Source: an uncultured Gammaproteobacteria bacterium (GTDB taxonomy: Bacteria > Patescibacteriota > Patescibacteriia > UBA2196 > GWA2-42-15). From it: 58,633 nt of DNA. The translations under genes were made by a program, and so were the position numbers. The stretch is from the NCBI GenBank assembly GCA_964573135.1, contig CAZNIO010000008.1, positions 1-58,633 on the forward strand, written 5' to 3'. Numbering within the stretch: position 1 is the stretch's first letter; every line of letters begins with the position of its first letter. Of the stretch, positions 12,247 through 38,359 are shown piece after piece. Below the pieces are notes generated by a model. The model ran no database searches. It had not been told where the DNA came from and worked only from the letters and a program-made list of their open reading frames with translations.

Positions 12247-12921
12247 ATGGCACGCGCAAAAGACCGAGAAAAGGCTCTGTCACTTAGAAAACAGGGCATG
12301 AGTTATAGCCAAATTAAAAAAATAATTGGGGTAGGCAAAGGCACTTTAAGCAACTGGCTTAGAGATCACCCCCTCTCAAAGGAAAGAATCAGGGAGCTCG
12401 TTTACTGTAACGAACAAAGAATAGAGCGCTGCAGGGAAACAAAAAGAAAGAAAAAAGAACAACGATTGCTCAACTATTACAATGAAGAGAAAAAAAATAT
12501 ATTTCCTCTTACAAAACGAGAATTCTATTTGGCTGGACTTGTTCTATACTGGGGAGAAGGGACTAAAAGACACTTAGCTACCCTGGCTGTTACAAATACA
12601 GATCCTGCTGTAATCAAATTCTTTATTATATGGACCATCAAAGCACTGAAATTCCCCAAAGAAAAAATTAAAATGCGCTTACATCTATATACCGACATGG
12701 ATATCAAAAAAGAAACACTCTACTGGTCAAAAACACTGAATATACCCCCAAAACAATTCACCAAGCCATATATCAAGCAAAGTTCAAGTGAAAGAATAAA
12801 TTATAAAGGCAGATTTGGTCATGGAACTTGTGTAGCCCAAATAGGGAATGCGAGGACAACTGAAAAAATTTTAATGGCCCTAAAAGCCATTGCAGACAAA
12901 TATAACGAGGAGCGCCTGTAG
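12247..12921 (+). CDS. N-terminal helix-turn-helix plus single-motif LAGLIDADG-like domain protein
   Basis: HTH-like ALSLRKQGMSYSQIKKIIGVGKGTLSNWL; LAGLIDADG-like FYLAGLVLYWGEG, then LAVTNTDPAVIKFF and YWSKTLNIP; stop codon lies inside the tRNA-Ile. Confidence 0.65.
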   Translation: MARAKDREKALSLRKQGMSYSQIKKIIGVGKGTLSNWLRDHPLSKERIRELVYCNEQRIERCRETKRKKKEQRLLNYYNEEKKNIFPLTKREFYLAGLVLYWGEGTKRHLATLAVTNTDPAVIKFFIIWTIKALKFPKEKIKMRLHLYTDMDIKKETLYWSKTLNIPPKQFTKPYIKQSSSERINYKGRFGHGTCVAQIGNARTTEKILMALKAIADKYNEERL

Positions 12922-12987
12922 CTCAGGGGTTAGAGCACCTGACTTATAATCAGGTTGTCGATGGTTCAAATCCATCCAGGCGCACCA
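12912..12987 (+). tRNA. tRNA-Ile (anticodon UAU), CCA encoded
   Basis: Acceptor GCGCCTG/CAGGCGC, D stem GCTC/GAGC, anticodon arm CCTGA-CT TAT AA-TCAGG, T arm GATGG-TTCAAAT-CCATC, discriminator A plus CCA; 76 nt. Confidence 0.92.
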
Positions 12988-12988
12988 G

Positions 12989-13078
12989 GGACGCATAGCT
13001 CAGTTGGTTAGAGTGCTTGCTCGACACGCAAGAGGGTTTAAAAGGTACAGTGTACCTTTTAAACGGTTCAAATCCATT
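12989..13078 (+). pseudogene. Disrupted tRNA-Val(GAC)-like gene with a 29-nt hairpin in the variable region and no 3' acceptor strand
   Basis: GGACGCA-TA-GCTC-AGTTGGTTA-GAGT, CTTGC-TC GAC AC-GCAAG, hairpin 13036-13064, GGTTCAAATCC, then a T-run instead of TGCGTCC-CCA. Confidence 0.7.
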
Positions 13079-13089
13079 TTTTTGATATA

Positions 13090-13166
13090 GGGCGGTTAGC
13101 TCAGTTGGTTAGAGCGCGTCGTTGACATCGACGAGGTCATTGGTTCAACTCCAATATCGCCCACCA
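13090..13166 (+). tRNA. tRNA-Val (anticodon GAC), CCA encoded
   Basis: GGGCGGT/ATCGCCC acceptor, CGTCG-TT GAC AT-CGACG, ATTGG-TTCAACT-CCAAT, ACCA; 77 nt. Confidence 0.95.
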
Positions 13167-13778: not shown

Positions 13779-14778
13779 CTGTGAATTACGAAACTCCCAA
13801 AAGAGCTCATAATGATGTAAAATTAAGGTAGTGTATTACTAACTAAAATTCTACACCACTATGAGAGCTTTTGTACCCATGTACAATTCAATCAAAGTTG
13901 TAGTCAATTTCTTTAGTAAACAATTACACTTTGATAAGTACAAATCCAAAACAGGTCGAAAGTTAGCTTTACCAATTGAAGATATCGTATCACTTGCTAT
14001 CTTCAAGCAGAAAAACAACATTGCTACAAAACGTGCTCTTTACAACATATTGAAACCAAATTGCTCATACAAGACACTGGTAGTTAATCTGAATAGATGG
14101 TTTTTCCTGGCAGTAATTATCCTAGTCCTTTTGATGAAGTTAAATAGGAGGAATACTCATTTGGTAAAACACATTGATTCCACTGAACTGCCGGTTTGTT
14201 TATTCAAGAATGCCCATGCTCATAAGACCATGAGAGACTACGCTGAATACAGGAAGAAAGGAAATACCACATTTTATGGGCTCAAACTACACATTATTAC
14301 TGATTTGAAACAAAGATTGTTATCAATTAACTTTACTGGAGCCAAGACGGATGATCGGGCAGTGGTCATTAAAATGGCTGACGATTTAACTGGCATATTC
14401 ATGGCTGATGCAGGGTATATATCAGATAAGTTGTCACGAGAATTCTATCAGGAACATAAGCGTGTGTTACTCGCTAAGCCAAGAAGTAATATGAAAAAGA
14501 TGATGACTCAATTTGAAGAAATGCTTTATCGTACAAGGATGTTAATTGAACTAAACTTTAGAGATTTAAAATTATTCCATGGGCTAGTAACTAGCCTGCC
14601 AAGATCAGTTGGAGGATATTTAGCTAACTATATCTACTCCATACTGGCTTATCAAATTGTTTAAATTGTGAAAAAGAACTTTACTACAATTCTACCTATT
14701 AACAGACAAACTTGAGTAATCAAGGATTATTTTGGTTATCCAAGTTTATTCGTTAAATGTGAGTTTCGTAATTCACAG
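13779..14778 (+). mobile_element. IS982-family insertion sequence, about 1000 bp, complete
   Basis: Perfect 18-bp terminal inverted repeats CTGTGAATTACGAAACTC (13779-13796) and GAGTTTCGTAATTCACAG (14761-14778), flanked by a TACTTA direct repeat (13773-78, 14779-84). Equivalent reading: AC...GT ends with an ACTT duplication. Confidence 0.9.
13861..14664 (+). CDS. IS982-family DDE transposase
   Basis: HIDSTELPVC, FYGLKLHII, FMADAGYIS, RMLIELNFRDLK. Confidence 0.88.
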   Translation: MRAFVPMYNSIKVVVNFFSKQLHFDKYKSKTGRKLALPIEDIVSLAIFKQKNNIATKRALYNILKPNCSYKTLVVNLNRWFFLAVIILVLLMKLNRRNTHLVKHIDSTELPVCLFKNAHAHKTMRDYAEYRKKGNTTFYGLKLHIITDLKQRLLSINFTGAKTDDRAVVIKMADDLTGIFMADAGYISDKLSREFYQEHKRVLLAKPRSNMKKMMTQFEEMLYRTRMLIELNFRDLKLFHGLVTSLPRSVGGYLANYIYSILAYQIV

Positions 14779-37266: not shown

Positions 37267-37298
37267 TTGATTTTAACTGAAAATCTGATATTATTCAA
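37267..37298. promoter_or_regulatory. Overlapping divergent promoters for the PIN gene and ychF within a 40-bp gap
   Basis: - strand TTGAAT, 17 nt, TAAAAT, 6 nt, ATG (37263); + strand TTGATT, 16 nt, TATTAT, 9 nt, ATG (37304). Confidence 0.55.
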
Positions 37299-37303
37299 AT
37301 AAT

Positions 37304-38359
37304 ATGAAAATCGGTATTGTCGGCCTACCAAATGTAGGCAAATCAACCCTATTTAAAGCTTTAACTAAAAAAAACGTTGAAGCTTCCAACTATCCATTCT
37401 GCACCATCGATCCCAACGTTGGTATTGTTGAGGTGCCAGATGATAGACTAGAAAAATTAACTAAGATATATAACTCAGAAAAAACTATCGGAGCCATCAT
37501 CGAATTTGTCGATATTGCGGGACTAGTTAAAAACGCTTCTAAAGGGGAAGGGCTAGGTAACAAATTTCTACATCACATACGAGAAGTTGATGCTATTGCT
37601 CATGTTATAAGAAATTTTCATGATGATAACATCACTCACGTTGAAGGAAAAATTGACCCCAAGGATGATCTGTCGACCATTGAAACTGAACTTGCCATGG
37701 CTGATCTAACCACCATAGAAAAAACCCTAAATAAAGTTAAAGATAAAATCAAAGCCAATGATAAACAAGCTCAAAAAATTCAACCAATTCTGGAAAACAT
37801 TAAAAAATCGCTTGATCAAGGGATAAAACCAGATATTTCAAACCTGAGTAAAGATGAATTAAAACTAATTAAGTCACTCAATTTACTGACCTTAAAACCA
37901 GAAATCTATATTGAAAACATTGATGAAAAAAACTTAAACAACACCAAATCATCTATCCCTAACTCAATCCCTATTTGCGCCAAGCTAGAAGCAGATCTCG
38001 CAGACCTATCAACAGAAGAAATAAAAGAATATTTAACTGAGCTTAATATTAAAAAAACTGGCCTCAGCCAATTAATTCTTCAGAGCTACAAATTACTAAA
38101 CCTTATTACGTATTTTACTTCAGGGCCGAAGGAAACACATGCGTGGACAATCACTGGTGGTACTAAGGCCCCGGGAGCTGCCGGTAAAATTCACACTGAT
38201 TTTGAAACCGGTTTTATCCGTGCCGAAATTATAAACTGGCAAAACCTTTTAAATTCAGGCGGTGAAGTCAAAGCCAAAGAAAAAGGACTTATGCAGCTTG
38301 AGGGTAAAGACTATATTATGAAAGACGGCGACGTCGCATTATTCCACTTTAATAAATAA
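37304..38359 (+). CDS. ychF: Redox-regulated ATPase YchF (OBG family)
   Basis: GIVGLPNVGKSTLF, NYPFCTIDPN, DIAGLV..ASKGEGLGNKFL, TGS domain TYFTSGPKE...DYIMKDGD. Confidence 0.97.
   Translation: MKIGIVGLPNVGKSTLFKALTKKNVEASNYPFCTIDPNVGIVEVPDDRLEKLTKIYNSEKTIGAIIEFVDIAGLVKNASKGEGLGNKFLHHIREVDAIAHVIRNFHDDNITHVEGKIDPKDDLSTIETELAMADLTTIEKTLNKVKDKIKANDKQAQKIQPILENIKKSLDQGIKPDISNLSKDELKLIKSLNLLTLKPEIYIENIDEKNLNNTKSSIPNSIPICAKLEADLADLSTEEIKEYLTELNIKKTGLSQLILQSYKLLNLITYFTSGPKETHAWTITGGTKAPGAAGKIHTDFETGFIRAEIINWQNLLNSGGEVKAKEKGLMQLEGKDYIMKDGDVALFHFNK

Follow-up and report, generated by a model that had tools for sequence, protein, structure and literature searches.

The DNA analyzed in this study, a stretch of 58,633 nucleotides that is called the window below, forms contig C8 in the draft genome of an ultra-small Patescibacteria/CPR bacterium from a salt lake. 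The assembly comprises 1.22 Mb in 44 contigs with 35% G+C, and its completeness and contamination are estimated at 100% and 1.46%, respectively. Family scans identified the proteins encoded in the window as bacterial, e.g. IF-2, whose nearest relatives (about 49% identity) come from MAGs labelled Patescibacteria, Falkowbacteria and Parcubacteria. ARAGORN detected four tRNAs in the window, one of which is a tRNA-Ile(tat) at exactly the position given in Table 1. It scores 76.8 bits on the Rfam tRNA model RF00005, for which the gathering score is 29. The anticodon loop reads C32 (12943), U33 (12944), U34 (12945), A35 (12946), U36 (12947), A37 (12948) and A38 (12949); the discriminator is A73, and CCA is encoded in the gene. 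ARAGORN, Rfam and the sequence itself thus agree with an earlier note on this DNA, which had described a canonical cloverleaf with the loop C-U-UAU-A-A.

Table 1. Positions of the tRNA-Ile(UAU) gene, its surroundings, and other features discussed in the text (window coordinates, unless a contig or locus is named)
Feature	Position	Strand	Evidence
HTH ORF	12247..12921	+	
tRNA-Ile(UAU)	12912..12987	+	ARAGORN, Rfam, sequence, covariation, contigs from 4 other runs
Decayed tRNA-like remnant between tRNA-Ile(UAU) and tRNA-Val(GAC)	12988..13089	+	Rfam, fold
tRNA-Val(GAC), conserved neighbour of tRNA-Ile(UAU)	13090..13166	+	ARAGORN
IS982-family transposase	13861..14664	+	
Weak GTPase-model match	37280..37375	+	
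IleRS	contig C1, 135989-138502 (L118:1129-4086:-)		phmmer, Pfam

Among 23 orthologues of this tRNA, RNAalifold recovered the cloverleaf with compensatory (double) changes in 15 of the 21 stem pairs, while the loop CUUAUA was invariant. Such a pattern argues for selection, and, judged by it, the gene is functional rather than a chance match. Contigs from four other salt-lake metagenome runs, which belong to different samples and studies, cover positions 12876-13034, 12893-13162, 12700-13049 and 12763-13053 with 0 differences. The earlier note had considered that reads might show C at position 12945. The T is also present in these contigs and no alternative letter is reported, at a depth of approximately 3x and in contigs, which could hide rare variants. 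A sequencing or assembly error, or a contig of a contaminating eukaryote or organelle, as might be suspected from a sub-threshold Rfam match of the reverse strand to a plastid leader overlapping a plastid tRNA, can practically be dismissed in view of the identical sequence in the four other runs, the bacterial IF-2 and the patescibacterial neighbours on the same contig, the mutually complementary tRNA sets of the assembly's contigs, and the orthologues of this tRNA in more than 150 related genomes.

The tRNA-Ile(UAU) gene is part of a small cluster. Of the related loci, 24 have a UAU tRNA, which adjoins tRNA-Val(GAC) in 15 of them and tRNA-Phe(GAA) in 6 others. In the window, tRNA-Val(GAC) and tRNA-Ile(UAU) are probably co-transcribed. 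With 26.2 bits, the sequence between the two genes stays below the gathering score of the Rfam tRNA model. Its 5' half resembles tRNA-Val(GAC) except for C33 and an anticodon stem that is still paired, but differs in sequence. Next come an inserted hairpin of 13 perfectly matched bp, a T-loop-like piece and T7. The T-loop-like piece is identical to that of tRNA-Ile(UAU) over 13 nt, the 3' acceptor strand is missing, and no second copy of the hairpin was found elsewhere in this genome. The element is unchanged in the contig of run X2 that spans 12893-13162. It is a dead remnant, located inside the tRNA cluster and outside the decoding system. Genes of mobile elements are found on both sides of the cluster: upstream, an ORF of 224 amino acids with an HTH motif and a faint match to the N-terminus of IS630 reaches 10 nt into the tRNA-Ile gene; downstream, at a distance of 700 nt from tRNA-Val, follows an IS982-family transposase that scores 121 bits, just below the cut-off of 130.

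In this assembly, tRNA-Ile(UAU) is the sole candidate decoder of AUA, and the codon it would read is far from rare. The earlier impression that ATA codons are common was borne out genome-wide: ATA accounts for 24.8 per 1000 codons and 29% of the Ile codons and occurs in 836 of 845 long ORFs, in which ATG is rarer (21.5 per 1000). An IF-2 alignment of 79 sequences, i.e. our own and 78 homologues, provides information on the meaning of the codon. The 14 columns with ATA contain I (36%), V (29%), L (18%) and M (2%), with I, V and L together at 83%, and are akin to the ATT columns (I 39, L 20, V 17) and unlike the ATG columns (M 31%). As far as 14 codons of one gene can tell, AUA is therefore used as an Ile codon, which argues against its reassignment. 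An AUA codon that is reassigned or ambiguous, e.g. read as Met as in many mitochondria, and a tRNA-Ile(UAU) that is no Ile acceptor could be founded on a theoretical U-G wobble only. This alternative is very improbable, given the Ile/Val/Leu profile and low Met share of the IF-2 columns, the residues A35, U36, A37, A38 and A73 of the tRNA, and its grouping with Ile2-type tRNAs.

The canonical bacterial system performs the same job, i.e. the reading of AUA as Ile, by means of tRNA-Ile2(CAU) and TilS; its tRNA carries C34, as opposed to the U34 of our gene. We searched the genome for both components. Profile searches of the assembly with PF01171 and TIGR02432 (cut-off for TilS: at least 93.6 bits on TIGR02432) detected no TilS, while control genomes gave the expected matches. 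The models matched two places in the genome, namely MnmA, which scores 381 bits on its own equivalog model and 25.9-27.8 bits on the TilS model versus the cut-off of 93.6, and ThiI (349 bits), for which no TilS match is listed. A tblastn search of all contigs with five patescibacterial TilS proteins likewise had ThiI, at E=0.008, as its best match. The archaeal counterpart TiaS (PF08489) had no match in this genome, either; four archaeal controls were positive.

According to both ARAGORN and Rfam, the assembly contains 41 tRNAs and, in addition, one remnant below the threshold; only two of these tRNAs have a CAU anticodon. One is recognizable as the initiator by C1xA72 and A11:U24. The second has the acceptor stem GGCGGxG/CxCCGCU, and because this stem is also found in a CAU tRNA of a TilS-positive genome that possesses a separate Ile2-like CAU tRNA, we read it as elongator tRNA-Met. 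Both CAU tRNAs are thus Met types, and a third one of Ile2 type was not found in the 44 contigs of this draft. Neither ARAGORN nor the Rfam tRNA model found tRNA-Phe in these contigs, although relatives often have tRNA-Phe(GAA) beside tRNA-Ile(UAU). The missing tRNA-Phe is probably located in an assembly gap; the tRNA set of the draft is therefore incomplete, and such gaps could conceal a CAU tRNA, too.

The TilS-less state extends far beyond this genome. In the class to which the window belongs, none of the 57 genomes searched has a TilS above the cut-off (0 of 40 relatives; all 16 further class members negative), and of the 29 best-matching loci retrieved with our tRNA from relatives up to class level, 24 proved to be a tRNA-Ile(tat). 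For the phylum, we evenly drew a sample of 301 genomes, including the unpublished genome G194, which is TilS-positive and contributes one count. TilS exceeded the cut-off in 121 genomes and did not in 180. A pattern composed of the UAU anticodon arm and the T-loop, the reversed control version of which matches about six genomes, was present in 151 of the 301. Among TilS-positive genomes, the pattern was present in 1 and absent from 120; among those without TilS, it was present in 150 and absent from 30. The sole TilS-positive genome with the pattern (G243) was rejected as a chance match, as ARAGORN finds no tRNA there. Five genomes with neither TilS nor the pattern were examined individually. 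Three of them (G058, G157, G232) possess a tRNA-Ile(tat) with a variant variable loop that the strict pattern had missed. In the other two, the closed genomes G043 and G072 of family f32, no TilS was detected, and no tRNA-Ile(UAU) by pattern or BLAST, so that the UAU tRNA is not the sole possible solution in this phylum. The pattern is present in G099, a third member of family f32.

Overall, tRNA-Ile(UAU) was confirmed in 0 of the 121 TilS-positive genomes and is carried by at least 153 of the 180 genomes without TilS. TilS and the UAU tRNA are mutually exclusive in the 301-genome sample, in which related genomes are not independent, so that the cross-tabulation overstates the statistical support. 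The TilS-less UAU state is the rule in the window's class and, with TilS lacking from about 60% of the sampled phylum genomes, a trait of the lineage, not of this genome alone. As a single locus, tRNA-Ile(UAU) is ordinary for its lineage, and its mechanism is of a known kind (TilS-less, with a UAU tRNA and a type-2 isoleucyl-tRNA synthetase). The view that a UAU anticodon is a rare exception in bacteria, which the earlier note had adopted, hence does not apply to this group. Its suggestion that the genome may have dropped tilS is supported insofar as TilS was not found in the assembly; the loss is not specific to this genome.

These distributions also bear on the possibility that our tRNA is redundant, with tilS and tRNA-Ile2(CAU) hidden in unassembled parts of the genome. 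Coexistence of both AUA systems, i.e. a UAU tRNA together with tilS and tRNA-Ile2(CAU), occurs in Lactobacillus casei, and the fragmentation into 44 contigs and the missing tRNA-Phe leave some room for it here. Completeness is nevertheless estimated at 100%, several of the 57 TilS-less class genomes are closed or consist of no more than 10 contigs, and no TilS-positive genome of the phylum sample has a confirmed UAU tRNA. Redundancy is thus hardly to be expected.

If tRNA-Ile(UAU) replaces the canonical system, it needs to be charged by the isoleucyl-tRNA synthetase (IleRS), which is encoded on contig C1 as an ORF of 985 residues. In a phmmer search against the PDB, this protein scored 720-780 bits with 8c8v (Priestia IleRS2), 9w01, 7d5c (yeast and human cytoplasmic IleRS are among these) and 1ile (Thermus), compared to 313 bits with the type-1 enzyme of S. 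aureus (1ffy). Its C-terminus comprises the Pfam domain DUF5915 (residues 851-985) and no Zn finger (zf-FPG_IleRS). By sequence, the enzyme is of type 2, i.e. eukaryote-like, with a predicted ARD3-type C-terminal domain in place of the Zn-binding domain.

In the Priestia enzyme PmIleRS2, the wobble base is accommodated in an ARD3 pocket of Q961, R964, K965 and L969 (PMC13752280). The corresponding Arg999 of yeast IleRS binds the carbonyl of G34 or I34 and was modelled to bind the O4 of U34, while Gln996 was modelled to add a bond to psi34, for which the yeast enzyme has a 40-fold preference (PMC11685878). Aligned to 8c8v, our IleRS shows the pocket N-x-x-R-K-x-x-x-L. The conserved Arg (R964 in PmIleRS2, R999 in ScIleRS) is present, and it is invariant in 34 patescibacterial IleRS sequences (15 from TilS-positive and 19 from TilS-less genomes); the adjacent Lys is found in all but one of them (R in L164). 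Recognition of U34 by this Arg appears plausible from homology to the yeast and Priestia enzymes. The pocket Gln (Q961 in Priestia, Q996 in yeast) is replaced by Asn at about residue 919. This Asn is shared by our genome, five other class members and one other TilS-less genome, while Gln is found in all 15 sequences from TilS-positive genomes and in the remaining 12 from TilS-less ones.

A change of IleRS type that co-varies with TilS loss was rejected, as the type-2 C-terminal domain is present in 281 of the 301 phylum genomes, TilS-positive and TilS-less alike. There is also no consistent pocket substitution in TilS-less lineages: the Arg is invariant, and the Q-to-N exchange is confined to the window's class and one other genome. 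Since the type-2 enzyme occurs throughout the phylum, TilS loss needed no synthetase change, and type-2 IleRS looks like a pre-existing, permissive background for this loss. Such a background would also fit Bifidobacterium and Neorickettsia.

Regarding the origin of the tRNA, the TilS-positive relatives are informative. No UAU tRNA was found in five closed TilS-positive genomes. Two of these genomes contain, as their best match to tRNA-Ile(UAU), a CAU tRNA with the same one-base-shorter D-loop, A26 and a GGGCC-type acceptor stem, i.e. the features that Ile2(CAU)-type tRNAs of TilS-positive Patescibacteria share with our tRNA. Most likely, tRNA-Ile(UAU) descends from a tRNA of the Ile2(CAU) type in which C34 was exchanged for U, as these likenesses, weak evidence at the length of one tRNA, suggest.

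We consider it highly probable that the gene encodes a minor Ile tRNA, which would read AUA by direct U34-A pairing, substitute in this lineage for tRNA-Ile2(CAU) and the lysidine-forming TilS, the combination common in bacteria, and be charged by the type-2 IleRS. In the predicted charging reaction, the pocket Arg of ARD3 could form a hydrogen bond with the 4-carbonyl of U34 as it does with the 6-carbonyl of G34, by analogy to the yeast and Priestia structures. Our best guess is that U34 would be unmodified or minimally modified, and that, as in Mycoplasma mobile, AUG would be rejected through competing tRNA-Met, a feature of the ribosome, or both.

The strongest alternative concerns this last step. 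U34 could be modified by an enzyme to which this task has so far not been assigned, be it through new chemistry, 2-thiolation by MnmA or pseudouridylation, and the modification instead of the ribosome would then restrict reading to AUA. As AUA is used more than AUG in this genome, misreading of AUG would be costly, which speaks in favour of such a safeguard. MnmA is present in the genome, while MnmE and MnmG were not found in it (what the MnmE model matched is a Der-like ORF, in its two GTPase domains), so that s2U without the xm5 group is chemically available. A pseudouridine, as in the psi-A-psi anticodon of eukaryotes, would suit the strong psi34 preference of yeast IleRS (PMC11685878). Against modification stand the unmodified U34 of M. 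mobile (PMC3575796) and the fact that we found no candidate enzyme that co-varies with TilS loss. Furthermore, tRNA-Ile(UAU) has A35. To our knowledge, all MnmA substrates have U35. We therefore regard a dedicated U34 modification as possible, but distinctly less probable than discrimination by the ribosome or by tRNA-Met.

MnmE and MnmG themselves were rejected as U34 modifiers, since neither was found in our genome and MnmG is present in just 11 of the 301 phylum genomes, 10 of which are also TilS-positive. TmcAL, which forms ac4C on tRNA-Met, was not found in our genome either. Without MnmE and MnmG, most of the phylum would have no xm5U in its split-box U34 tRNAs (Lys, Glu, Gln, Leu-UAA, Arg-UCU). 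More broadly, it is conceivable, and we propose it tentatively, that TilS-less Patescibacteria tell AUA from AUG by undescribed means, either a new U34 modification or an adapted ribosome or decoding centre. If true, such discrimination would apply to a large part of the diversity of bacteria, in organisms that use AUA more than AUG and in which no MnmE/MnmG, TilS, TiaS or TmcAL was detected.

Returning to the predicted reading of AUA by an Ile tRNA with U34, known systems provide several parallels. M. mobile lacks TilS, reads AUA with a UAU tRNA whose U34 is unmodified, and relies on a ribosome-based rejection of AUG; its IleRS is of type 1, with a Zn-binding domain and an exchange of Trp905 (E. 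coli numbering) to Arg (PMC3575796). Our bacterium resembles M. mobile in the absence of TilS, the UAU tRNA for AUA and the small genome, but has a type-2 IleRS without the Zn-binding domain, and the synthetase adaptation therefore differs. The earlier note had named M. mobile as an example, which holds for the TilS-less UAU state and not for the synthetase with its Trp-to-Arg exchange, so that Bifidobacterium and Neorickettsia, with their type-2 enzymes, are the closer parallels. These two possess no tilS, a tRNA-Ile(UAU) and a eukaryote-type IleRS (Taniguchi et al. 2013, PMC3575796). As in our genome, TilS is missing, Ile2(CAU) is replaced by a genomically encoded UAU tRNA, and the type-2 IleRS carries an ARD3 C-terminal domain. 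Unlike in that comparison, type-2 IleRS is here also present in TilS-positive members of the phylum, and the window's class has N for Q in the pocket. The scale differs, too: Bifidobacterium and Neorickettsia represent few species in two clades, as opposed to a whole class and about 60% of the sampled species of a very large phylum. A third parallel is the eukaryotic cytoplasmic tRNA-Ile(UAU), which likewise combines a UAU gene with a type-2 IleRS whose conserved Arg reads the carbonyl of N34 (PMC11685878). Formation of its psi34 and psi36 (psi-A-psi) is intron-dependent, whereas our gene has no intron.

Taniguchi et al. 2013 listed nine TilS-less species in three clades and reported 371 tDNA-Ile(TAT) sequences in metagenomes, which were not assigned (PMC3575796) and partially anticipate the phylum-wide pattern described here. 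In tRNADB-CE, 19 species are listed, and a 2026 paper still refers to UAU in bacteria as 'rare cases'. We found no paper that joins lysidine with Patescibacteria or the candidate phyla radiation in a literature search whose coverage ended at subscription papers, and wider queries likewise brought up nothing pertinent. TilS is considered an essential enzyme that is specific to bacteria and nearly universal among them, and it has been put forward as a drug target. The window is one instance of a TilS-less pattern that encompasses a whole class and about 60% of the sampled Patescibacteria species. These bacteria provide a natural set for asking how a U34 tRNA reads AUA and not AUG without the xm5U pathway.

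Two minor observations concern the assembly and the window. The strand G/C skew is uneven and in places very strong: it amounts to about -0.26 across the window and to |0.23-0.30| on contigs C1, C5, C9, C12 and C16, and is near 0 on C3, C6, C10, C11, C14 and C15. Split by gene strand, it suggests a coding-strand part of approximately 0.1 and a second part of approximately 0.2, the latter being weak on contigs whose skew is near 0. Strong-skew and near-zero contigs have complementary tRNA sets, and a mixed bin is thus not the obvious answer. Further downstream in the window, the weak match to a GTPase model (Table 1) is located in a frame of 356 amino acids with one in-frame TGA.
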